Source: Somniosus microcephalus
Lineage: Eukaryota
Length of the DNA: 64,000 bases
Assembly (NCBI GenBank): GCA_052327205.1
Contig: CM126220.1
Coordinates: 33,046,001-33,110,000 of the forward strand
Reading direction: 5' to 3'
The notes under the pieces are model-generated. The model had not been told where the DNA came from. It saw nothing but the letters and a program-made list of their open reading frames with translations, and ran no database searches. Shown in pieces: positions 22,890 to 57,400 of the stretch (positions are counted from its first letter, which is position 1; the number at the start of each line of letters is the position of its first letter). Made by a program: the position numbers and the translations under genes.

Positions 22890-25800
22890 TGTAATGATCA
22901 ATAACATGTCATTCTAGAATAGTACACTAGGTGGAGCTATAGAGCTGTATATTTAGTTGTATGTGTTTAAGACTACACTACCCACGATACACTAGGCTAC
23001 CCACAAGGCAGTAGTCAAGATGGAAGCCTGCACACAGAATCTCTACAGAATGCTGAATCTCTACAGATGCTGTACTTAGAGAACGTGTACTGAATAAATG
23101 ACTAGCTAGAAGCTAGCTGTGTTCATAATAAGAATGTCTAGTTATTAATGAACATAACATGGTACCAGGATTGGTGAAGATCTGCTCAAAATTGTGAAAC
23201 GCAACATGGAGAATTTGAAGCCACCGGAGTTTTTGAATCTCACGGGAAATGTCGACTACAATTGGCGGACTTTCAAACCATCGGGTTTGGTACGAAGCCA
23301 GATGCAAGGAAAATAGCATTGCTGCTCACGGTTGCAGGCCCACAGGCGATAGAGGTATTTAATACATTTGTATTTAATCCAGAGGAGAACAGAAACAAAT
23401 TAGACGATGTGCTAAAGAAATTTGATACACATTGTTCTCCCAAAAAGAATGAAACCTATGAGAGGTATGTGTTCTGTTCAAGGACACAGCAGCAAAATGA
23501 GACTATTGATAGCTTTGTGACTGATCTGAAACTGAAAGCACAGACATGTAATTTCTCTGAGCTGAAAGCATCCATGATTCGTGACCAAATTGTGTTTCAT
23601 ATTCATGATAAAAAGTTAGGGAACGTCTGTTGAGAGAAACCGAACTGACATTGGAAAATGCTGTGAAAATATGCCAAGCCAGTGAGCTAGCTCAAAAGCA
23701 CGCGAAGACTTTCAGTGAAATCAATAATGATGCGATTGTAGTAAGTGTTGTTGTCGGTGCTGTGTCCTATAAGGGGAAGAAACATGGGCAGAACAGAAAT
23801 GAAAAGCAATCGGAGGAAGGAAATTTTAATTGTAAACGCTGTGGTTACAAACACCAGTTAAAACAATGCCCAGCGTTTGGAAAAATGTGCACAAAATGTC
23901 ATGGAAAGAATCACTTTGCCAAACAATGCTTTTCAAAAGTAAAAACAAAGAAAGGGCAACAAGTCCAAGTCAATATGATTGAGGACACTGATTTAAGTGA
24001 GACATTTTTTGTACGAATGGTGTCATGTGACAATGTCAAAAATGATACAGAAAATGTGCAGCCCTCAGATATGGACAATGCTGAACATAAAGTTAATGCA
24101 GTAAAAGAGGACAAATGGATGATCCCACTGCAGGTAAATGGAGCATTAGTTACATTGAAACTAGACACTGGGGCAAAAGCAAACTTAATCAGTATGAGTG
24201 ACATTAAAAACATGAAAGAAAAGCCCAAAATACAGAAAAAGTCAGTACTACTGAAGGGCTATAATGAACAGAAAATAGATAGCTTCGGTGTATGCACACT
24301 TAAAGTGACAGTCAAAGACAAAGTGCATCATCTCATGTTTTCTGTTGTGGCTGAAGGACTTGATTCACTACTGGGTGACAAAGCTTGTGAAGACTTAGAA
24401 CTGGTCAAGAGAGTATACCGTATAAACTGTGCCATAAACAGACCAGATGACTCAGTGGATTCTGTAGTAAATAATTTCCAGGATGTGTTCAAAGGATTTG
24501 GAGTTCTACCATTCACTTACAGGATCCAGCTAAAGGAGAATGCTCAGCCAGTGGTACATGCTCCACAAAGAGTTCCAGCACCCCTGCGTGACCGGCTCAA
24601 GAAAGAACTGGACAGAATGACCACACTAGGAGTCATCAGGAAAGTCGAAGAGCCAACAGACTGGGTTAACTCCATGGTATGTGTAAAGAAAAAGAACAAT
24701 GATCTAAGAATATGCATGGATCCAAAGGACTTAAATGCAAACATAAAACGTGAACACTACCAGATTCCCAAGCGAGAAGAAATCACCAGTGAAATGTCAG
24801 GTGCCAGATACTTTACAAAGCTCGATGCCTCACAAGGATTTTGGCAACTAAAACTGGATGAAGAGAGCACCAAATACTGTACCTTCAACACACCATTTGG
24901 CAGGTATTGTTTCCTCAGAATGCCTTTCAGGATAATATCTGCATCTGAAATCTTTCATAGAGCGATGGAACACATAATTGAAGGTCTGGAAGGAGTCCGG
25001 GTCTATGTTGATGACATCATCTGGGGCTCCACACTGAAAGAACACAATGAGCAACTGACTAAAGTGCTACAGAGCACACACTGGAATGGACTGAAGCTCA
25101 ACAAAGCCAAGTGTCAGTTTGGCGTCCAGGAAGTCACTTTCCTAGGAGATATTCTATCTGGTAAAGGAATAGAGCCAGATATGGAAAAAGTAAATGCCAT
25201 ACTCAACATGCCCCGACCCACTGACAAAAAAGGAGTGCTACGCGTCATGGGGATGATAAACTTCATTGGAAAGTTCATTCCTAACTTGTCAGCCAAGACA
25301 ACCTGTCTGTGAGACCTGCTACATAAAACAAATGAGTTCGCATGGACAGAAAGACATGAACAAGAGTGGATGAACCTCAAAACAGTGCTGACAACCACAC
25401 CTGTACTCACTTTCTTTGACCCAACAAAGAGAATCAAAGTGTCAACGGATGCATAAAAAGATGGCCTAGTCGCGGTCTTGCTACAAGCAGAGGGTGAAGA
25501 TTGGAAGCCTGTTGCCTATGCCTCCAGGTCTATGACTGATACTGAGTGTCGATACGCCCAGATTGAAAAGGAATGTCTAGGCTTGGTAGTTGGATTAGAA
25601 AAGTTCCATGGCTACATATATGGACTTCCCACCTTCACAGTTGAGACAGACCACAGCCCACTGGTTGCCATCATTAAAAAAAATCTGAATGAGATGTCTC
25701 CAAGGATTCAACGACTCATGATGAAGCTGCAAAGATATGACTTTGAACTGATCTACACACCAGGCAAATACATAGTGTTAGCAGATGCACTATCCCGAGC

Positions 25801-26725
25801 ACCCACAATGAATCATGTGAGCTCTACTGAAGAAGACGTGGATGTTCATGTGAGTATGGTCACTGCTGCGCTGCCCGTGTCAGACACAAAATCAAAGCAA
25901 ATAGCAGAAGAAACAGTAAAAGATACAGTGTTACAAACAGTAATAGAAAACATTCATCATGGTTGGCCAAAAGGTTCCTGTCCAAAATACTATCACATAA
26001 GGTCAGAGTTGAGTGTCGCAAGTGGACTATTACTAAAACAGAACAGAATAGTCATTCCACAGGCTTTACGTCAAGACATGCTCAAAAGGATTCATGAGGG
26101 ACACCTCGGAATTGAAAAATGCAAAAGGAGAGCAAGAGACACTGTTTATTGGCCTGGCATAAATAAGGACATTGAGAACATGATAGGCAGATGGGAGACA
26201 TGTCAGAAACACCAGAACAATCTCATGAAAACACATCAGACTTACCCGTGCTGAGAAGATCCACACGTGAAGTAAAAAAGCCTGATAGACTTAATCTTTG
26301 AGTATAAAGTAAAGCTTTGAAAATGTGTTGACTGTTGTGAAAATATTTATGTTTATAGAGCACTAGCAAAAGTGTTACTGATATCATCTTTATCGTTTTT
26401 CTTGAAAGTTGATTGATATTGATTGATATTGTTTTTGTTTAACCTCAAAGAAAGGGGGATGTAATGATCAATAATATGTCATTCTAGAATAGTACACTAG
26501 GTGGAGCTATAGAGCTGTATATTTAGTTGTATGTGTTTAAGACTACACTACCCACGATGCACTAGGCTACCCACAAGGCAGTAGTCAAGATGGAAGCCTG
26601 CACACAGAGGCACACAAGCTGAATCTCTACAGATGCTGTACCTAGAGAACGTGTACTGAATAAATGATTAGCTAGAAGCTAGCTGTGTTCATAATAAGAA
26701 TGTCTAGTTATCAATGAACATAACA
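22890..26725 (+). mobile_element. Gypsy LTR retrotransposon A, with the integrase core deleted
   Basis: LTRs at 22890-23159 and 26460-26725 (TG..CA; about 5 substitutions plus one indel patch), TSD CTCTT, PBS tggtaccaggattgg (tRNA-Leu-like) and PPT aaagaaaggggga. Confidence 0.92.
23206..26301 (+). pseudogene. Gypsy gag-pol pseudogene
   Basis: Two CCHC knuckles, protease LDTGA, RT YVDD, RNase H (YASRS, ETDH) and the integrase zinc region HEGHLG. It then jumps to the terminal KKPDRLNL*. Stops and frameshifts at about 23280, 23630, 25310 and 25453. Confidence 0.9.
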
Positions 26726-32809: not shown

Positions 32810-33508
32810 GGCCTAGAAATTGAGTTGGGCCCGCACTAGGGCTTTAGCGCCGGAAATTTTGCGCCGGCGCTAAGTCCCACTGCGCGTTCCAAAAATTCAG
32901 TAGCGCCACGCCCAGACGGCTGCGGGCACTACTGGAGGGTGTCAGCGCCTCCCAATGGGCGCTGACTGCAGGATTGCGGCACTAATCCCCCGCTGCGGCA
33001 CCCGATGCGGTGCGGCAGGCTGGGGTACTGCAGGCCTCCTCCTTCTGTTAAGGAGGAGCTGCCTGCAGCCGACAACTGTCCGGCGGATTCCCCCGACATC
33101 TGAGCCCGGCACCTCGGGGAAGTGCCGGGCTCGCAGCACACACTCATCAGGGCCGCGGGGGGGGTGATGCAGGAGTCCGGGAAGGGAGGTGCGGGCAGGC
33201 GGCCGCCGGGAACGCGGCCGGCCGCCGCTCCACCTTTATGCGCCGGCGCAAAGGCGTGGAAGAACACTTTTCACTTTCGTTAGTTGTGCCTGCCACGGGC
33301 GAGGCGGGCGCAACTGAATTTGGGCTTGGGGCCGGGTTACCACGGCAACCGGGACGCTGCGCACACCGATGACGTTATCGGTGCCGGCGCAGCGCTACCG
33401 GCTAACGCCGATGGTAAGGCCCAAGTCAATTTGCAAAACGGCTATAAGTCCGGCGCAAGGCCCTCTAGCGCCACTAATTGGGCGCTAAGCCCACTCAATT
33501 TCTAGGCC
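32810..33508 (+). mobile_element. ~700-bp GC-rich Harbinger MITE
   Basis: Perfect 16-bp TIR ggcctagaaattgagt / actcaatttctaggcc, TSD TTG. Confidence 0.9.
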
Positions 33509-33662
33509 TTGAAGTAGGACTCCAATCATTTCTTTGAGCAGTGAGCACGAATTTTGCCTGCAGTCTAAAGCATTAACGCCCGGCGCTAATTCTCCAACTT
33601 TTCTACTGATACTGCCCATTCCTTGGCTATAATGAATTTCTAGCCCAATATTGTTTCATAAG

Positions 33663-36600
33663 TGTAGTGTATGTACCCGTTTACCTTTAAGGGAACTATT
33701 GAATGTAACCGTTCGCCTTTAAGAGCACTATTTTAGGTGTGGCACTATTTGTTGGCTCATGTATACTGTAATACCGATAGTGACCACACCAGTATATAAG
33801 GGTTGTGATACGTTAACTAGGGCAGATTCGCCCGAACCTCTGAATAGTAAAGACCTGTTTTATTTGTTAATCTTGGAGTCTGTGTATTATTTGCAATACA
33901 ACCCACAGACTTTACAATGGCGACGAGGCCGATCGTACCCTGCGGCAACAGTAGTTCCTAAGCAACTAAGGAGCGTTGAAGTGAGGCAACCGCCTTCGTC
34001 GTGCTGCTGGAAGAACACACGAGGCTGCAGCAACAGACAGGAAGCAGACTAGCAACGAAAGTTCATCAGCAACAGGCACAACTACCCTTTTACCACGGTG
34101 CGGAGTGCGTCGATCAACTAACAAAAGAAAGCAACCGGCGACCGCAACGACTGTGAGTAGGGGAAAGTGTGGAAAATATCCGGAGGATAAGGGCAGTGAC
34201 CACCACGGTCGAGGGGGTGAAAAAGGCCGGACAGCGACCGGGATCACAAGGCGCGGTGGCGATAAATAAATAAATAACTAAATAACCCGCGAAGAATCAG
34301 CCGCAGCCGGGGAGGAAAGGGCCGGACGGCGGGAGGTCGGGGAGAGGCGTTTGAATCCGCTGAGCGAGAGCCCGAAAGGGAGCGAGCAAGAGTCGCTTCG
34401 AGCGGGAGGCGCTTCGCGAGCCAGCGATCGCACCAGCGATAAGGGCCGAGAGCCGCTTCGGGCGAGAGGCGCAGCGCGGGCCATCGATCGCATCCACTGA
34501 TAAGGGCCGGGCCGCTTTGAAGTGAGGGGCGCAGCCGGGCCATCGATCGCAATCCCTGATAAGGGCCGCACTCGGGCTGGTAGGGCAGAGTCGGCAGACA
34601 CTGAAGGCACGAGAGCTGCGGTGAACAGCGTGGGCCATCAATCGCGGCGGAGATAAGGGCCGCACTCGGGCTGAAAGACAGCGTCGGGGGTCGGGTGAAG
34701 ACCGCCAAGCGCGGGAAAACCGCCATTGAAGTGGGCGGGGAGAGCGAGAAGCGCGGGAAAGCCGCCATTTTTCGCGGGGAAACCGCTGGGGAAGAAGACA
34801 GAAGCGGGAAACCGCCATCTTAGAAAATTAATAAGAATTTTCAGAAATGCTGGTGTGTTCTCAAGAAGAGAGGAAAAATAAGAATAAGTAAAGCAATACT
34901 TGTGTTGTTCTCAAGAAGAGAAGAAGATGCCTAAGCGAGGAAATATTAATGATTTTAATGCTGAAATAGAAGACTGGGCCACGTATGTGGAACGCATAGA
35001 AATATATTGCGTAGCCAACGAAATTGAGGATGACGACAAGGCAATAACTTTGTTATATTCGATGGGAGCAAAAACATACGGGCTCTTGAAACATCTAATA
35101 GCACCAGTTAAACCAGTGGACCAGACCTTCGAAGAGATCGTAGCAGTGCTGAAGGATCACTTGAACCCCACACCGTTGATGCTGGCTGAACGATTTAAAT
35201 TTTACGCAAGAACCCAGAGGAAAGATGAAAGCAATGCGGAATACTTAGTCGAACTGCGTAAGCTAGCGAAATACTGCCAGTTTGGAGGGAATTTGACAGA
35301 GGCGCTGCGGGACAAGTTCGTATGCGGCTTGGCCAAAGAAGGAACGCAGAAGCGACTTCTGGAAGAAAACGACCTCACACTGGACAGGGCTGTCCTCATA
35401 GCTTCATCGCACGAAGCCGCAGCGAAAGGAACGGCGGAAATGCAGCTAAAGGCGGCGGCACTCGGGGTGGACCAAATTACTGCAAGCACTTCCAAATGCT
35501 ACCGTTGTGGAAAGACAACGCATGACCAGAATCAGTGCTGGTTTAAGAACCAAGAGTGCAGGAAATGTGGCAAACTGGGTCACATCGCGAGGGTATGCAG
35601 GTCCGGAAAGAAGACCAACAAGCAAAGGAAGCCACCACCACAAGAAAAGTACAACAAGGTACACCAGGTGGCTGAAAAGAGTTCAGACGAACAAAATTCG
35701 GACTCAGACCCAAACAGCCAGGAGCTGGATAGTCTGAGAATCCATAATGTGGGTAAAGTAACTGATCTACAGACGATCTGGGTCACACTAAAAATAGCTG
35801 GAGTCCAAGTACGAATGGAGCTGGACACGGGATCAGCTGTATCAGTCATCAACCAAAAGGACTACCACCGGCTATTCTCTCACATACCCTTAAGAAATAC
35901 CAAGTTCGTATTACAGACATACACGGGGCATAACGTATACCCCATGGGGAAAATAAGAGTCAAGGTGAGAGATAGGGGTAAAGTACACCCAAGAATGAAT
36001 TTGTACGTACTACCTGAGGGAGGACCACCACTTCTAGGACGGGAGTGGATCAGGAAAATAGACATGGAATGGCACTACCTACAAACAATGACGAGTGAGG
36101 ACTCGGTGCAGACAAGCAGCTCAGACTCCGAGCCGGAAGACGATAAGTCCAGCTTACGTATGAAAAACAAGGTTAACATGAACTCACGGACTAAGGTTGG
36201 AAAATCGATGGCGTGCATAAAGACAGAGAATTCTGAGTCTGTTCAAGTTACAGACATATGCATTACGGAAGAACACCGGGCTCGAACTCAACGTTATTTC
36301 AAAGTACGACAACAATTAGAACAATTAAGTTACCGCCTCGTACAAGAGATGAAAACAATGAAAAAGTTCTATGACACCGAATGGGAGAGTCTGGAAAGAC
36401 AACAGAACCTACTGGCTCAAGCAGAGAGCGACCATAGAGCCATCGTGACCAATTACCGATCACATCTCCCTTATGATGTTCAGGAGTTAGAATATTTGCA
36501 TGATCTAGAGATACAGCAGAAGGGCAAACCACGCTACACTGAGGATTTTGTTCTGCAATTGGAGACGGAGCTAGTGCAGGCAAGGTTAAGAGAAGTTGAA

Positions 36601-38565
36601 TCGCAGTGTGCTCTTAAGGAGATGCAGAAACAAATCTTGGACATGGAAAAGAGAAACGCTTCTTTACCTGATGTGAATAATGTGGACATGTTGCGAGAGG
36701 GGATTATTGAGGCGAAACTGAAAGAAGCTAAGCAAAGGATGTTGGAACTTGAAACACAGAACCAAATCAGCAGAAATCAGCTATGTCGAGCAGAGAAGGA
36801 GTGCTATGGTCTACATGAGAAGGTGCAATATCTCTCAGCCCAGAATAAGGGGCTACTCACTCAGTTAAATGAGAGTAAACGGGAAATGGCTGAGATAGAC
36901 TGCAAGAATAAAGAAGAATTGATGGCAGTGAGACTTCGAGAGGCAGATAGCATAGCAGCCTTGGCTGAACTCCAAAAGGAAATTGCAAAAAAAACAATTG
37001 CAGAGGAATCTTCAGGAAGCCAGGATTTTATTCCAGTCCTTCTCTACGACTCCTTACAAGCAGAGTGTGAGAAGTTGAAAGAACAGTATGGACAGGCCCA
37101 GGCTACAATGCTGGAGGGGATTAACTCGGCAACCCCCGAAAAGCTAGTTTCAGTAGAAGCATATGAACAACTAAAGGTTGAACATGAGCAAGAAGTCCAA
37201 AGGCTGCAGGAAATGTTTGATGAGCTCCAGGCCAAGGCTGCCTCATCGGTAAAGATTCCATCCATAGATGAAACATTAGTGGTGGAAGAGGAGAGGGGTT
37301 TGGAGCTCTCAAAAGTTATTGAAATAGCTGAGGTTGCAACACAGACTGAGAAGATGGCAGCAGAGCAACCCTTGGATACCAAAAGTACGCTGACTCACGT
37401 CAATGTAGAACAACAGACCGCTGAAACAGCTGCTCCGGTAGAGGGATTGAATAGTCCGATCAATCAATCTCCAAAGGAAGTTGAAGTATTAAAATCACAA
37501 ATGAGGTCATTAGTAAACGACTTGCTGAAAGCTCAGAAAAAGCTGGATGAAGAGGTACACATGAAGAAGTCTCTTCAGGAAAGATGTCTGGATTTGGAAC
37601 AAGAGCTGGCTAACGTCCAGCTGGGTATGGAGGAAATAGACGACCCTCTCGCTGGCCTAGCTCAGGACGACACCGAATATTACCATGACCTGGTGGACTA
37701 CACCGAATATTACGATGTCCTGTCCTGCCCAGCTTGTAACTTCGACTCCCAAAGTGCAGAAATCATGGAGGAGCACCAAAAGTCTACGGAACATCGGGAG
37801 AAGGTGGCTCTACTACGGAAAAAGGAGGAAGAGAAGGAGGAACTGCGCATGCAGCTGGCAGCTGACAGTGGAACCCAGAGAGTCTCCAAGAAGCAGAAAA
37901 GGAAAAGTCGAAACAGAAGATGACCCATCTGAACCATTATCACCTCTACCAGATCACACACGTGGTCCCTCCGAACGGAGCCAAATCAGTTCGGAAGTTC
38001 AAACTGTTAAATCCATGGAAGGACTGTTGAATGAGTCACTCCAGCAATGTGAACCGACTACACCACAGAGACTGAATCTGTGAACTGTTTTCCGCAGAGA
38101 CTGAATCTGTGATCTGTTTTGACATGAAGTTATATATGTTATTATGTTATGTTAAACATGAAGTTATATGACGTTGACTCCATCGAGAGTATATCTGTAA
38201 ATTGTTATATGACGTTGACTCCATCGAGAGTATATCTGCAAACTGTTTATATAAAGTTGAAGATTGTATGTTTAACGGGATTCTGTAAGTAAAAAGCTAA
38301 AAAGGGAGGATTGTAGTGTATGTACCCGTTTACCTTTAAGGGAACTATTGAATGTAACCGTTCGCCTTTAAGAGCACTATTTTAGGTGTGGCACTATTTG
38401 TTGGCTCATGTATACTGTAATACCGATAGTGACCACACCAGTATATAAGGGTTGTGATACGTTAACTAGGGCAGATTCGCCCGAACCTCTGAATAGTAAA
38501 GACCTGTTTTATTTGTTAATCTTGGAGTCTGTGTATTATTTGCAATACAACCCACAGACTTTACA
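33663..38565 (+). mobile_element. Very young non-autonomous Gypsy LTR element B, with pol replaced by host-like sequence
   Basis: LTRs at 33663-33916 and 38312-38565 (254 bp, no differences seen by eye, TG..CA), TSD ATAAG, PBS tggcgacgagg (tRNA-Ser-like) at 33918 and PPT aaaaagggagga before 38312. Confidence 0.95.
34927..37923 (+). CDS. Chimeric Gag-protease fused to a host-derived coiled-coil/zinc-finger mosaic (998 aa from ATG 34927)
   Basis: Uninterrupted ORF: Gypsy Gag (EDWATYVERIE, LRDKFVCG), two CCHC knuckles (35497-35598) and an aspartic protease (ELDTGS...LLGREW, about 35776-36072). No RT, RNase H or integrase motifs. The remainder resembles STK10, ANKRD24, EVI5, OPTN and DNAJC21 segments. 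Confidence 0.88.
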   Translation: MPKRGNINDFNAEIEDWATYVERIEIYCVANEIEDDDKAITLLYSMGAKTYGLLKHLIAPVKPVDQTFEEIVAVLKDHLNPTPLMLAERFKFYARTQRKDESNAEYLVELRKLAKYCQFGGNLTEALRDKFVCGLAKEGTQKRLLEENDLTLDRAVLIASSHEAAAKGTAEMQLKAAALGVDQITASTSKCYRCGKTTHDQNQCWFKNQECRKCGKLGHIARVCRSGKKTNKQRKPPPQEKYNKVHQVAEKSSDEQNSDSDPNSQELDSLRIHNVGKVTDLQTIWVTLKIAGVQVRMELDTGSAVSVINQKDYHRLFSHIPLRNTKFVLQTYTGHNVYPMGKIRVKVRDRGKVHPRMNLYVLPEGGPPLLGREWIRKIDMEWHYLQTMTSEDSVQTSSSDSEPEDDKSSLRMKNKVNMNSRTKVGKSMACIKTENSESVQVTDICITEEHRARTQRYFKVRQQLEQLSYRLVQEMKTMKKFYDTEWESLERQQNLLAQAESDHRAIVTNYRSHLPYDVQELEYLHDLEIQQKGKPRYTEDFVLQLETELVQARLREVESQCALKEMQKQILDMEKRNASLPDVNNVDMLREGIIEAKLKEAKQRMLELETQNQISRNQLCRAEKECYGLHEKVQYLSAQNKGLLTQLNESKREMAEIDCKNKEELMAVRLREADSIAALAELQKEIAKKTIAEESSGSQDFIPVLLYDSLQAECEKLKEQYGQAQATMLEGINSATPEKLVSVEAYEQLKVEHEQEVQRLQEMFDELQAKAASSVKIPSIDETLVVEEERGLELSKVIEIAEVATQTEKMAAEQPLDTKSTLTHVNVEQQTAETAAPVEGLNSPINQSPKEVEVLKSQMRSLVNDLLKAQKKLDEEVHMKKSLQERCLDLEQELANVQLGMEEIDDPLAGLAQDDTEYYHDLVDYTEYYDVLSCPACNFDSQSAEIMEEHQKSTEHREKVALLRKKEEEKEELRMQLAADSGTQRVSKKQKRKSRNRR

Positions 38566-39769
38566 ATAAGCATGCCAGCTCCCAACTCTAGTCTTCAATA
38601 CCTCTTTTTCCATTACATCCAATGTCATCTCTTTATTCTATTCATGCTAAATGGTCAAGATCCCTCTGAAGTATTCTCCTTTGTTTCTCCTAAGCTTCAA
38701 GTATGTCTTATACACATTCTTCTTCCTCCCTAAGTCTTCACTGTGCTGAAATCACAGGTGTGATACCATGACAAGGCATTTGCAGGAATCACACATCGGG
38801 AAATTGTGCTGTGCAGCTCTTCCAAAATGTGCTCCCGATGAGCACCATTCCCCAGTGGAAGTGTGGATCATGAAAAAAGACCCTCAAAAGATATTGGCCC
38901 AGTAATTCGGGTCCCAGCGCATGAGTACGGACGGGGTACTCACGCATGGGCCCGATGGAAGTGTCGGTTTTCAGCATGCACAGCGCATGCGCGGAAAACT
39001 GGCATTTCCTTTCCTCTGAACCAAGGGGTTAAGAGGCGGAACGCGTGCAACGTTTCAGGCAGCGCGTGCGCAGTGAAATTCGGCGTTTTCATGAATGGTT
39101 TGAGTGAGGGTAAGTCCCCACGATTTACACATTTGAAAAGGAGGAGTAAAGCTGGCCAGCAGCTCCGTAACGCTGAGGGTGAAGAATTGCTTCAGCAGTG
39201 CTGGTTCTGAACAGCAAATTTTTAGTTGTGAAAGGGAGGGAATTTATTGTAAGAAAGTCTGAGGTAAGTTTCCAACTTTATTTTTTTTTTTTAAACGGGT
39301 TTTGAGTAGTGTAGGTATAAGGATCAACTCTAGCTGTGTGCAAGGCCTAATTGAATATGATTTCTTTATTAAATGTGAAAATGACTGTTTAAAAATGAAT
39401 AAAATGTTTAAAAAATAAACTTCTCATCAGTAATATATCTTCTTTTTAGTAATTATGTATGTATGAATGTATGTATGTCTGTATATATTCCTTGAAGGAT
39501 GTGCATTTCTGTATGTATTCCTTTCAGTATGTGGATGAATGTATGTATGTAATGATGACTTTCTGAAAATGTAAGTTATTGGAAAATGATCTCGGCCTGT
39601 GATATTCATCAGGCAGGTATGACGTGTTCCCAAGCCGTTAAAGCATGTTTCCTGCCATAGGCCGAGTTGATTTTATAGCCACTCAGTTTATTAAAGTAAC
39701 TGTAACAACTATTTCCATTTCTTCCTTACAAGTACGTCTGTGTAAAGAGGAGTCCTGTGAGCGAGAAAC

Positions 39770-41044: not shown

Positions 41045-41748
41045 GGCCTAGAAATTCAGTTTGGGGCGGCCAGCTCGCTCGCGCCCAGAAAGTACCGCTG
41101 CGCGCGGAGCCACTTGCGCCCGCCGGAAATTCAGTTTCAGCACCCCAACTCGGAGGCGGCCGCTATTCAAGGGTTTCGGCGCCCCCGCTTGGGGCGCTGA
41201 AACTGAATATCGGCGCGCTAGGTGCCGCAGCGCCACCCGCTGCGGAGCGGCAGGCTGCGGTACTGCAGGCCTTCCTCCCTCTCTTAAGGGGGAGGTGCCT
41301 GCAACAGCGAGATCGCCGCTCGCTAGTGCCGGCAAATGAGCCCGGCACCATGGAGAAGTGCCGGGCTCCCGGAAAACAGCCGGCAATGCCGCGGGGGGGG
41401 CGGGTGGAGGAGGCCGGGGAAGGAGGTGCGGGCAGGCGGCCGCCGAAAAAGCGGCCGACCGCACCTCCGCCTTAACTCGCCCCACTAACGCTACAGGACG
41501 GCCCCGTTTTCTGATCGCTGTTTGCGGCCGCTGCGGAAGAGGCGGCCGCAACTAAATATGGCGGTCGGGCCAAGTAGCGGGGCGGTAGCGGGGCACTGCG
41601 CACACCGATGACGTCATCGGTGGCGGCGCAGCGCTACTGGCTAACGCCGCCATTACCGCAGCACTGAATATCGCCGAAAGCTCAGCAAGTGGTGCAAAAG
41701 CCCTCTTTGGGCGAAAACTGGGCACAAAGCCTACTGAATTTCTAGCCC
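41045..41748 (+). mobile_element. ~700-bp GC-rich Harbinger MITE nested in a Harbinger
   Basis: TIR ggcctagaaattcagt / actgaatttctagccc (15/16), TSD TAT. Homologous to 32810-33508. Confidence 0.9.
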
Positions 41749-54403: not shown

Positions 54404-57400
54404 GTATTTTGCCAGTCTCAAAGCTGGATCTACAATCCGGCGGTCACGGCCCTTCCCTTGAGGCAGCCAATGGTGCGGCCATTCGCACGTTCGGTAAACA
54501 GACAGTTAATTTAACTCTTGGAGGTCAACGTTTTGTATGGGAATTTATAACGGCTAAAGTATCACAGGCCATCCTGGGGGCTGATTTTTTTTGTGCATAT
54601 GGTTTTCTGGTCGACGTCCAACATTGTCGACTCATTAATGCGTCTACCTTCCATGCGGTGCTTTGTCACCGCAGTACTGCTGTCTCCTGGTCGGTTGCCT
54701 GTGCGGTTCCATCGCAGGAAGGGTTTAGGCGCCTACTTGGCGAATTCCCGGGGCTCACCAGGCCTACATTCTCGGCAGCAGTTGCGAAGCACGGTGTGGT
54801 GCATTATATTACCACAACGGGATCGCCTGTTTACGCCCGGGCACGAAGATTGGAACCCGGAAAGCTTATAGCCGCAAAGGCAGAGTTTCGGATTATGGAG
54901 CGCCTTGGGATTGTCCGATGCTCCGACAGTCCTTGGTCTTCCCCATTACACATTGTACCCAAACCAGGTGGCGGATGGAGGCCTTGTGGGGATTACAGAT
55001 GCCTTAACGAAGCCACTATGCCGGATAGGTATCCAATACCGCATATACAGGATTTTTCGGCTCATTTGGCCGGCAAAACAATATTTTCCAAAGTAGATCT
55101 CATCCGTGGATATCATCAAGTTCCTGTGTACCCTCAAGACATCCCCAAAACGGCGGCCATCACACCGTTTGGCCTTTTTGAGTTCCTTCGCATGCCATTT
55201 GGATTGAAAAATGCAGCTCAGGCTTTTCAGCGACTTATGGACTCTGTGTTACGGGACCTTCCTTTCATTTTCATTTACTTGGATGATATTCTCATTGCTA
55301 GTAAAGATAAGGAAGAGCATATGGCTCATTTACGTACACTCTTTGCCCGCCTCAGCCAACATGGCCTCATTATAAATCTAGCCAAATGCCAGTTTGGGTT
55401 AACCAGCATTGACTTTCTAGGGCATAGGATCACCTCAGAAGGCGCCGTCCCACTGGCCACTAAGGTAGAGGCAGTTACGGCATTCCCGCGGCCGCATATA
55501 CTTAAATCTCTTCAGGAGTTCCTGGGGATGGTGAATTTTTATCACCGTTTTGTCCCCAAGGCAGCCCAATTAATGCAGCCGCTGTACGAAGCACTTAAAG
55601 GGAAGTCGGGTAAAGATGTTATCATTTGGACACCACAGATGGACCAAGCATTCCTGGACACCAAGGCGGCATTGGCAGATGCAACTATGCTTGCACACCC
55701 ACTCCCGGGCGCGACCATCGCCCTTACTACCGACGCCTCCGATTACGCCATCGGGGCAGTGCGGGAACAATGGGTTGACGGGACTTGGCAGCCATTGGCC
55801 TTTTTTAGCCGCCAACTGCGTATAAATGAGCGAAAATATAGCACTTTTGATAGGGAGTTGCTGGCCTTGTTTTTGGCCATCCGGCATTTTCGTTTTCTTC
55901 TAGAAGGGCGCCCGTTTACTGCATTTGTGGACCATAAACCGCTCACTTTTGCAGTGGCCAAAACGGCGGAGCCGTGGTCAGCCCGGCAACAGCGCCACCT
56001 TACATTTATATCGGAATTTACAACGGATTTGCGACATGTGTCTGGCAAAGATAATCTTGTGGCTGATTGCCTGTCGCGTGCCCCAGTCCAGACAATTCAC
56101 CTGGGAATCGATTACGTCGGGTTGGCAAAAGAACAGCTGGCGGATCCTGAGGTTCAGGCGTATCGGACCATGCCTTCTAGCTTGCAGGTAGCCGATGTTA
56201 TGTTCCAATCAGCAGGAACCACGCTTTTGTGTGACATACCCATGGGAGTGCCCCGGCCCATTGTGCCAGTCGAATGGCGTAAGAAGATTTTTCAGATTAT
56301 ACATGGCTTATCACACCCGGGGATGCGAGCTTCACAACGACTTATGTCCCGTAAGTTTGTTTGGAAGGGAATGCATTTAGACGTTCGGGGCTGGACAAAC
56401 AATTGCGTGGACTGTCAAAAATCAAAGGTTCATCGTCACATGAAGGCTCCAATGGCCATCTTTCCAGTGCCTGAACGCCGGTTCGACCATGTACATGTGG
56501 ACTTAGTGGGCCCCCTCCCCATTTCGCGGGGTTTTATGCATCTCCTGACAATAGTGGACCATACTACCAGGTGGCCAGAGGCGATTCCCTTGGTTGCTAC
56601 TACCACAGCGGACGTATCCAGGGCATTTATTTCGTCATGGGTGGCCCGGTTTGGAGTGCCATCTGATATCTCCTCTGACCGTGGTCCACAATTTACGTCA
56701 GAGTTGTGGAATGCAGTTGCACAGGGCTTGGGTACCAAGCTGCATCGTACCACCGCGTACCATCCGCAAGCAAATGGCTTATGTGAAAGATTTCATCGGT
56801 CTTTAAAGGCGTCCCTCCGTGCCAGCTTGCGTGGTTCCAACTGGGTGGATAGACTCCCTTGGGTGCTGCTAGGCCTCTGTACAGCCCCCAAAGATGACCT
56901 CCAGGCTTCATCGGCTGAGTTAGTCTACGGTCAAGCGCTTCGAGTACCAGTGGATTTTCTCCCTCCACATACAGAATCATGGTCACCTGCTCAGCAGCTT
57001 CTTCAGCATCAAGAGGTGGCAAAGAATTTCCTGCCTATTCCAACTTCGCATCACAATCTACAGAAGCCTCATGTTCTGGCAGAACTTATGAGTTCCGATT
57101 ATGTTTTTATTCGGCAGGATGCTCATAGAGATACACTCAGACCACCTTATGATGGACCGTTTCGTGTTATTGCAGCGGGAGAGAAATATTTTACGGTCGA
57201 AATGGGAGGTAAATCGGATACCATCTCCATCGACCGACTTAAACCAGCCCATCTGGATTGGAGTGAACCGGTAGTTGTTGCTCAGCCACCTTGCCGTGGA
57301 CGACCACCATTGGCTACTAGACCAATTATGCAGCAGTCTACTATTAAATTGCCTGCTTCGGCTCCATCCTCGTCTACACCTTCTGCTACGGTTTCCTCCA

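Follow-up and report, generated by a model that had tools for sequence, protein, structure and literature searches.

We analysed a stretch of 64,000 nucleotides (nt) of Somniosus microcephalus DNA (assembly GCA_052327205.1, contig CM126220.1, positions 33,046,001 to 33,110,000 of the forward strand; hereafter the window). At 33663–38565 the window carries a long terminal repeat (LTR) element that encodes Gag and a protease, followed in the same frame by pieces of host genes, the cargo. The element is probably a recent non-autonomous Ty3/Gypsy insertion in which pol was replaced stepwise by captures templated on circular RNA (circRNA), by other captures and by recombination, and whose cargo would be filler selected for its open frame. 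With somewhat less confidence, we favour the view that it represents a Gypsy superfamily of more than 10,000 copies that routinely captures circRNAs, in one full turn and in frame, nests the captures serially and reshuffles them by recombination.

Structure of the element

The two 254-bp LTRs are identical and have TG...CA ends. A 5-bp target-site duplication (TSD), ATAAG, flanks the element on both sides, and a primer-binding site (PBS) and a polypurine tract (PPT) are present. A single stop-free frame spans 34888–37923 and gives 998 amino acids (aa) from the ATG at 34927; the 1007-aa numbering of the initial annotation equals ours plus nine. Pfam matches of this open reading frame (ORF), namely a Gag hint (E 0.047), zf-CCHC and an aspartic protease (E 3e-5), all lie within the first 380 aa, and the 612 aa after Gag-CCHC-protease are host-derived. 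No reverse transcriptase (RT), RNase H or integrase was found in the ORF by the Pfam scan, and the tail matches 0 of 7 patterns for their catalytic motifs. The element thus lacks the enzymes of its own that an autonomous Gypsy element has. It codes for Gag, protease and cargo, which sets it apart from terminal-repeat retrotransposons in miniature and large retrotransposon derivatives (TRIM/LARD), a class with no coding capacity. The structural description in the initial annotation was re-found throughout, including the tail devoid of Pol enzymes. The predicted model of Gag has a pLDDT of 47, a quality at which a capsid fold is unsupported. The features are as follows, all on the + strand.

33658–33662: left copy of the TSD, 5 bp (right copy 38566–38570)
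33663–33916: 5' LTR, 254 bp, identical to the 3' LTR
33918–33928: PBS, presumably for tRNA-Ser; first 9 nt common to the autonomous relative L041
33929–34926: GC-rich 5' leader with short direct repeats, probably the packaging region
34927–37923: single ORF (P0001), 998 aa, Gag-protease-cargo; intact in 18/25 copies
34927–35601: Gag with two CCHC knuckles
35782–36066: aspartic protease, DTG at 35824
36091–36255: part of the large linker exon of an STK10-type kinase, the 5' arc of a permuted capture; 76–89% nt identity to the host exon at G000:C8:167.197 Mb
36265–36405: STK10-type PKK coiled coil, two host exons joined
36403–36498: C-terminal block of ANKRD24-like/ankycorbin; at 36483/36484 it meets, out of donor order, the opening five codons of the internal block
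36502–36987: circularly permuted EVI5 coiled coil; exon-end/exon-start junction at 36516/36517, internal 64-aa deletion, TTGC(A) microhomology at both outer junctions
36988–37296: ANKRD24-like/ankycorbin internal block, resuming after the EVI5 insert
37294–37637: optineurin coiled coil, three host exons with introns lost; 83–91% nt identity to the host gene on G000:C17
37642–37908: degenerate jaz-type C2H2 zinc finger with acidic and basic flanks; DNAJC21/Jjj1-like as a lead
37885–37920: polybasic C-terminus, 8 K/R among the final 12 aa
37943–38035: beginning of the large STK10-type exon, the 3' arc of the permuted capture; lies in the 3' untranslated region (UTR) and out of frame; 84–89% nt identity
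38296–38311: PPT, close to that of the autonomous relative
38312–38565: 3' LTR

Host genes in the cargo

Four donors are confirmed, namely an STK10-type kinase, ANKRD24-like/ankycorbin, EVI5 and optineurin. The EVI5 block (E 8.5e-65) shares 132 of 171 aa with shark EVI5, the optineurin block (E 1e-35) 87 of 112 aa, and the internal and C-terminal ANKRD24-like/ankycorbin (ANK) blocks 75 of 98 and 22 of 27 aa, respectively. All three genes are gene-specific best matches, at 77–81% aa identity to other sharks, rather than generic coiled-coil matches. NCBI calls most shark matches to the ANK blocks ankycorbin and one ANKRD24-like. The STK10/SLK PKK domain is recognised in the window (PF12474, E 2.4e-5), and a host STK10-type gene on G000:C8 is the source of aa 389–443, which the initial annotation had left unassigned and which trace to an exon of this gene, and of PKK aa 447–493. 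The PDB search favours STK10 over SLK only narrowly (E 8e-7 vs 1.6e-6); we otherwise take the gene to be STK10 rather than SLK. A homologue search with aa 385–497 returned nothing at E 10, and a PDB search with the whole cargo gave chance matches only.

The optineurin block joins three exons of the host gene on G000:C17 at GT/AG borders with the introns precisely lost. Sister element L029 joins six optineurin exons at 96–99% nt identity, except one exon at 86% through an internal deletion. Intronless host exons thus stand between two LTRs, as in an LTR-mediated retrocopy, for optineurin (three exons) and for the STK10-type PKK block (two exons). Separately, a very young processed copy of the last five STK10-type exons, 98–100% identical to the host, lies at L032 272–935 (G000:C3:354.658 Mb).

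A fifth donor, a DNAJC21/Jjj1-type zinc finger, is likely, with the name a lead. The finger is weak in the window (PF12171, E 0.009) and clear in a sister element (E 3e-10), where it is a jaz-type C2H2 finger. Its Atlas neighbours are DnaJ/ZUO1 plus jaz proteins (top score 0.95); with the window's own finger all Atlas scores stayed under 0.9. The host DNAJC21 gene was not located by a ZUO1-domain search, among short-frame jaz matches or by a metagenome scan, which gave a single 17-aa match. Two candidates were set aside. The ZUO1-domain match, presumably DNAJC2-like, is another gene without a match to the finger, and the best short-frame jaz match (L038) is another gene too and not the finger's donor. 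Of the mosaic of at least five genes that had been proposed, four donors therefore stand on gene-level matches or host exons, and DNAJC21 stays a lead since its host gene was not found.

Circular permutation of captured blocks

In sister elements, the STK10 capture opens at a point within the host large exon and closes on this exon's initial 159 nt, the two ends overlapping by 14 nt. The last PKK exon of L035 and L040 runs precisely to the GT donor, and what follows matches the end of the kinase domain of STK10 (PDB, E 8e-7). This end lies upstream of PKK in the protein, and hence the joined order is reversed. The exact exon end is found in these two of the three sisters that retain it, and L034 is deleted across that point. 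In the window, both arcs are present, but only the 5' arc is still in frame.

The EVI5 block has the same geometry. Among 120 EVI5 homologues, the sequence varies just before an HK motif and just after a LEIQ motif, which marks these flanks as exon borders. The element joins the two borders in reverse order at 36516/36517, and the block starts at donor residue 638 and ends at residue 637. It is nested in an ANK stretch whose halves are contiguous in the donor. A form skipping the EVI5 insert is seen in reads and in DNA contigs (joint 36500–36995), and therefore an ANK-only precursor exists. Within the ANK block, the C-terminal part is joined to the upstream internal part, and the acceptor side fits an exon border in two homologues.

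The EVI5 and STK10 blocks look like one full turn around a back-spliced circular RNA, since reverse transcription around a circRNA would be expected to yield a single complete turn containing a back-splice junction. The ANKRD24-like block, with its similar junction, may also stem from a circle. The optineurin capture is colinear, starting about 11 nt inside an exon and, in L029, ending near an exon end. Microhomologies, judged by eye without simulation of chance, occur at the switch junctions. The initial annotation had proposed capture of messenger RNA by template switching. The optineurin exons joined at GT/AG and the microhomologies agree with RNA capture by switching, while the templates of EVI5 and STK10 look circular rather than linear.

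Permuted blocks could instead come from linear templates, be it transcripts with exon repetition or trans-splicing or a single mRNA on which RT switched twice, or element copies may have been rearranged later. Non-colinear junctions can arise without circles (Dong et al., PMC4897178), the elements recombine often, and optineurin is colinear. Such templates would have to account for two independent captures, each with an exon-end junction and with a single donor position for start and stop, and the host kinase gene was found with a single set of 3' exons. We hold an origin from linear templates to be unlikely and prefer circular ones.

Sister subfamilies and recombination

Queries with the cargo gave 23,841 (optineurin), 16,569 (PKK), 13,825 (EVI5) and 21,270 (jaz finger) first-look candidates, which are not copy numbers; 66, 150, 57 and 150 of them, respectively, were scored. 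The optineurin matches were continuous and intronless in 66/66, and 25 of the 57 EVI5 loci lie in frames of at least 1115 aa. Nine sister loci were fetched, eight of them selected for long frames. Eight have the same Gag-protease, and the ninth stretch spans cargo only. Their cargoes differ. L029–L031 and L039 carry PKK and a long optineurin block; L034 and L035 carry PKK and three to four titin/MyBP-C-like I-set immunoglobulin (Ig) domains, whose donor we assume may be IGSF22; L040 (G000:C6:64.21 Mb) has a myosin-tail coiled coil (E 2e-15), which we take to be cingulin-like, inserted into the PKK block, plus the finger; and L033 and L036 hold a longer version of the window cargo. We considered whether the C-terminal stretch of the sisters is a Pol remnant and rejected this, as about 53 aa of it are the STK10 exon and only the last part derives from Pol. 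LRAT, named in a shark preprint, was likewise rejected as a mass cargo (20 candidates, 16 matches).

Two sisters show further peculiarities. Behind its protease, L034 (G000:C8:74.34 Mb) has an additional insert with an autophagy-receptor-type zinc finger (PF18112, E 0.01), together with about 120 aa of other sequence. In L039 (G000:C3:66.24 Mb), the frame continues beyond the usual element end into another repeat, to 1413 aa in total.

The window element is a recombinant between sister subfamilies. It is nearest to L033 from Gag to the ANK-internal block (80–97% nt) and nearest to L039 in optineurin (94%) and in the finger (85%). Circle-like templates, recombination between sisters and the many families with differing cargo had all been missed by the initial annotation.

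The autonomous relative L041 has a 1318-aa frame for Gag, protease (PR), RT, RNase H (RH) and integrase (IN) and shares the PBS core, the PPT and the LTR start with the element; 10 of 150 scored RT matches lie in frames of this length. The TG...CA LTRs, the TSD within 4–6 bp, the PBS and PPT, the CCHC Gag with aspartic protease, and the PR-RT-RH-IN order in L041 place the element in Ty3/Gypsy. Pfam scans of the element and of L041 found no env-like family.

Genomic copies, age and transcription

A DNA search of the 6.45-Gb assembly gave 12,664 first-look candidates, of which 25 were scored. All 25 copies are 97–100% identical. A single match covers the full length of 23 of them, an insertion interrupts another, and the last is truncated at its 5' end. 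In 18 copies the ORF is open and in the other seven it has stops, at different codons; indels are absent from the ORF of all 25. Among the 24 copies with two LTRs, 23 have a perfect 5-bp TSD, 23 have LTR pairs that differ by 0–5 substitutions, and 23 are 4.84–4.95 kb long, compared with about 5.2 kb for the autonomous relative. The mean pairwise ORF divergence among copies is 0.8%. The element thus belongs to a young, propagating subfamily. A propagating non-autonomous family is what the initial annotation had suggested. The copies are dispersed and have their own TSDs, and the 25 dispersed near-identical copies exclude an assembly chimera. The element is no fixed gene either. At G000:C6:183.83 Mb (L013, L027 and L028), one copy of the family sits inside gag of an autonomous-type relative.

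RNA reads of two runs, X7 and X8, were matched at 94% likeness, a check that the initial annotation had called for. X7, of which about a quarter was covered, gave 12,932 reads over 30/30 bins, with a strong bias to the orientation that as a rule corresponds to sense; 7,971 reads came from X8. As most reads are 90–99% alike to the element, the transcription is that of the family and not of this locus. At 35157–35473, reads of both runs skip 315 nt of gag without GT-AG ends, probably reflecting a deleted subfamily.

It is very improbable, and largely refuted, that the ORF is a domesticated host gene or that its frame is open through youth alone without selection. Such a reading could draw on the abundant transcription and on the near-identical LTR pairs. 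The dispersed copies with their own TSDs do not fit a domesticated Gag gene of the Arc/PNMA/RTL type (single fixed locus, LTRs lost, no decay). Moreover, private stops accrue among copies at the neutral rate, and the cargo has diverged between subfamilies without gaining a stop, as described below.

Selection on the frame and on the cargo

The private mutations of the 25 copies served as neutral baseline (150 transitions to 54 transversions; nine stops among 150 non-synonymous singletons), and ratios of non-synonymous to synonymous change (dN/dS) were corrected with this spectrum. Between the window and L033, Gag has a dN/dS of 0.09 and the protease of 0.25. The cargo codons diverged between subfamilies comprise 98 with single-base and 21 with multi-base changes. 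The pooled single-base changes are 33 synonymous and 65 non-synonymous, with 29.3 synonymous changes expected under neutrality (p=0.24), and the corrected dN/dS is 2.35 for the zinc finger, 1.8 for the ANK-internal block and 0.99 for the Ig domains. About six stops were expected between subfamilies and none was seen (P about 0.002), a count that is biased, to the detriment of this reading, by sisters mostly chosen for long frames; offsetting this, the frame is open in 18 of the 25 copies, which were chosen solely by DNA similarity, and a frame of exactly 1139 aa recurs in 11 of the 57 EVI5-bearing loci. Of the seven gaps that separate the window from L033, five have lengths divisible by three, and the remaining two offset one another. 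Hence, Gag and protease are selected and the frame is kept open, as had been proposed, while the amino acids of the cargo evolve about neutrally. The cargo had also been proposed to act as a selected scaffold or decoy, which lacks support because of this near-neutral evolution.

A functional cargo protein could still be envisaged, either with dimeric coiled coils that stand in for RT in promoting dimerisation and thereby protease activation, or with released cargo that serves as a decoy to autophagy and trafficking factors, the capture route being the same. The blocks are mostly acidic coiled coils (E+D 17–22%). Sisters carry an optineurin region with what we take to be a motif like an LC3-interacting region (LIR), and an autophagy-receptor-type finger (PF18112, E 0.01). 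Uncorrected dN/dS is 0.2–0.5 in several blocks and 0.16 for L029 vs host optineurin. In HIV-1, RT aids Gag-Pol dimerisation and protease activation, according to the accessible text of PMC11998509. On the other side, the constraint suggested by uncorrected dN/dS is mostly gone after the transition-corrected test, the cargo is freely exchanged, even for Ig domains, and the window lineage is without the LIR-like region, has a decayed finger and shows a dN/dS of 0.59 vs host optineurin. We judge cargo function doubtful, and as improbable as linear templates, and favour frame-selected filler.

In addition, all eight complete non-autonomous ORFs in the comparison end with 8–9 K/R in 12 aa, as opposed to four in the autonomous relative, and they reach these ends by two different frame changes. 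In yeast Ty elements, integrase carries the nuclear localisation signal, according to the accessible text of PMC4974528.

Model of stepwise replacement

The family would rely on a Gag and a protease of its own, both under selection, and on RT and integrase supplied by autonomous relatives, so that it would be mobilised in trans. First, RT may have jumped onto an STK10-type circular RNA, copied it once around and gone back, at the cost of the RT, RNase H and integrase regions. Later captures would have landed inside this founder cargo. They would comprise an ANKRD24-like piece, into which one turn of an EVI5 circle was next inserted, as well as the optineurin and zinc-finger pieces. Recombination of co-packaged sister subfamilies and in-frame deletions would have led to the present mosaic. 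A circle would ease capture, as a single microhomology could serve as both entry and exit. RNase H would destroy the copied template and thus force RT to exit at its entry point after one turn, in line with established RT chemistry. The cargo is most likely translatable filler of about Pol length, which would avoid a long (2.4-kb) 3' UTR and nonsense-mediated decay. An alternative or additional gain might be read-through to the polybasic C-terminus, and another a genome length kept near autonomous size.

Several points weigh against this model. As regards the circles, no circRNA was observed in the reads, in which element transcripts hold the same junction. The EVI5 exon borders come from isoforms of other species and not from host DNA. 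For STK10, the donor border is from host DNA, the upstream origin of the joined piece from PDB, and the acceptor exon not from host DNA. At the ANK donor border the continuation is identical in 12/12 informative homologues with no isoform support, and the colinear optineurin block means that not every capture has a back-splice. As regards the cargo, PKK (p=0.011) and one of two optineurin comparisons between sisters (L029 vs L031, p=0.028) show some constraint, at p values uncorrected for 14 tests, and the polybasic tails could be a by-product of purine-rich frames. L041, at 66–67% identity in Gag-PR, may not be the real helper. Finally, the X8 reads are of mixed strands, and X7 and X8 may not be from the genome's own species.

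Relation to known systems

Transducing retroviruses with gag-onc fusions are helper-dependent and have Pol replaced by host sequence fused to Gag; they are infectious and have taken up one or two genes, and selection acts on the function of their cargo. In contrast, no env-like family is seen in the shark element, and its cargo is near neutral.

In the following, all sources except Dong et al. are represented by the parts of their text that were accessible. LTR-mediated retroposition is described in animals, including a mouse retrocopy of four genes (Tan et al. 2016, PMC5131818). Template switching at microhomologies has there put host RNA in place of the ORFs that lay between the LTRs, frequently in sense orientation and in frame; such retrocopies are few loci per genome, and 14 of 21 older ones have loss-of-function changes (PMC5131818). 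The shark element differs by its selected Gag-protease fused in frame, its high copy number, cargo exchange and circle-like templates. Maize Bs1 is likewise an LTR element, with a hybrid ORF of three host genes, and has retrotransposed again; it is from a plant, has 1–5 copies and one donor out of frame, and no circular permutation is described in the accessible text (PMC5131818, PMC13317346). Gene capture is also known for Drosophila telomeric elements (PMC13534243). The initial annotation thus overstated the novelty of multi-gene LTR capture, with the mouse retrocopy and Bs1 in print (PMC5131818). Pseudogenes derived from mouse circRFWD2 have non-colinear back-splice junctions, no poly(A) and LTR association (Dong et al. 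2016, PMC4897178). They number 33–42 and come from one circle, by a mechanism called unknown, whereas the shark element has serially nested captures of putative circles, a translated frame and a one-turn geometry that points to a mechanism. Single-exon OPTN copies noted in a shark genome are also intronless, with LINE/LTR sequence within 1 kb; they are read as host retrogenes, and the accessible text describes no Gag-protease fusion, mosaic or copy-number scale (10.1101/2024.09.09.611499). Two other shark genome papers, searched by term in their accessible text, have nothing on these genes (10.1101/2025.02.19.638963, PMC10468316).

A full-text literature search, without preprint supplements, most subscription journals and Repbase/Dfam, found no high-copy in-frame family that combines multi-gene capture and circRNA. 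No such fusion protein is among the homologue matches listed, a weak negative given length limits and the dominance of EVI5. What is new is the combination of LTR-mediated capture and circRNA retrocopies, each known singly, in a high-copy, in-frame, recombining family.

If the model is true, the family is an exon-shuffling system fed by circRNA, in which circular RNA is a possible major raw material for gene shuffling, and it would preserve germline circRNAs as a fossil record and give rise to apparent gene duplications in large shark genomes. The one-turn geometry would provide a concrete mechanism, with many natural events in one genome, for a circRNA retrotransposition route called unknown (PMC4897178). 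In this non-autonomous family, selection for an open frame can also be told apart from selection on protein sequence. Its thousands of expressed intronless fragments of OPTN, EVI5, STK10 and other genes may mimic gene expansions and distort expression estimates in sharks.

Other repeats in the window

A dispersed repeat at 32990–33410 adjoins the element, and a second copy, 75% identical, lies 8 kb away at 41225–41649. The window also contains a distant Gypsy element at 23301–26218, with Gag-PR-RT homology and about 30% aa identity to L041, and a further degenerate Gypsy pol fragment at 54979–56823, with 31% aa identity to L041.

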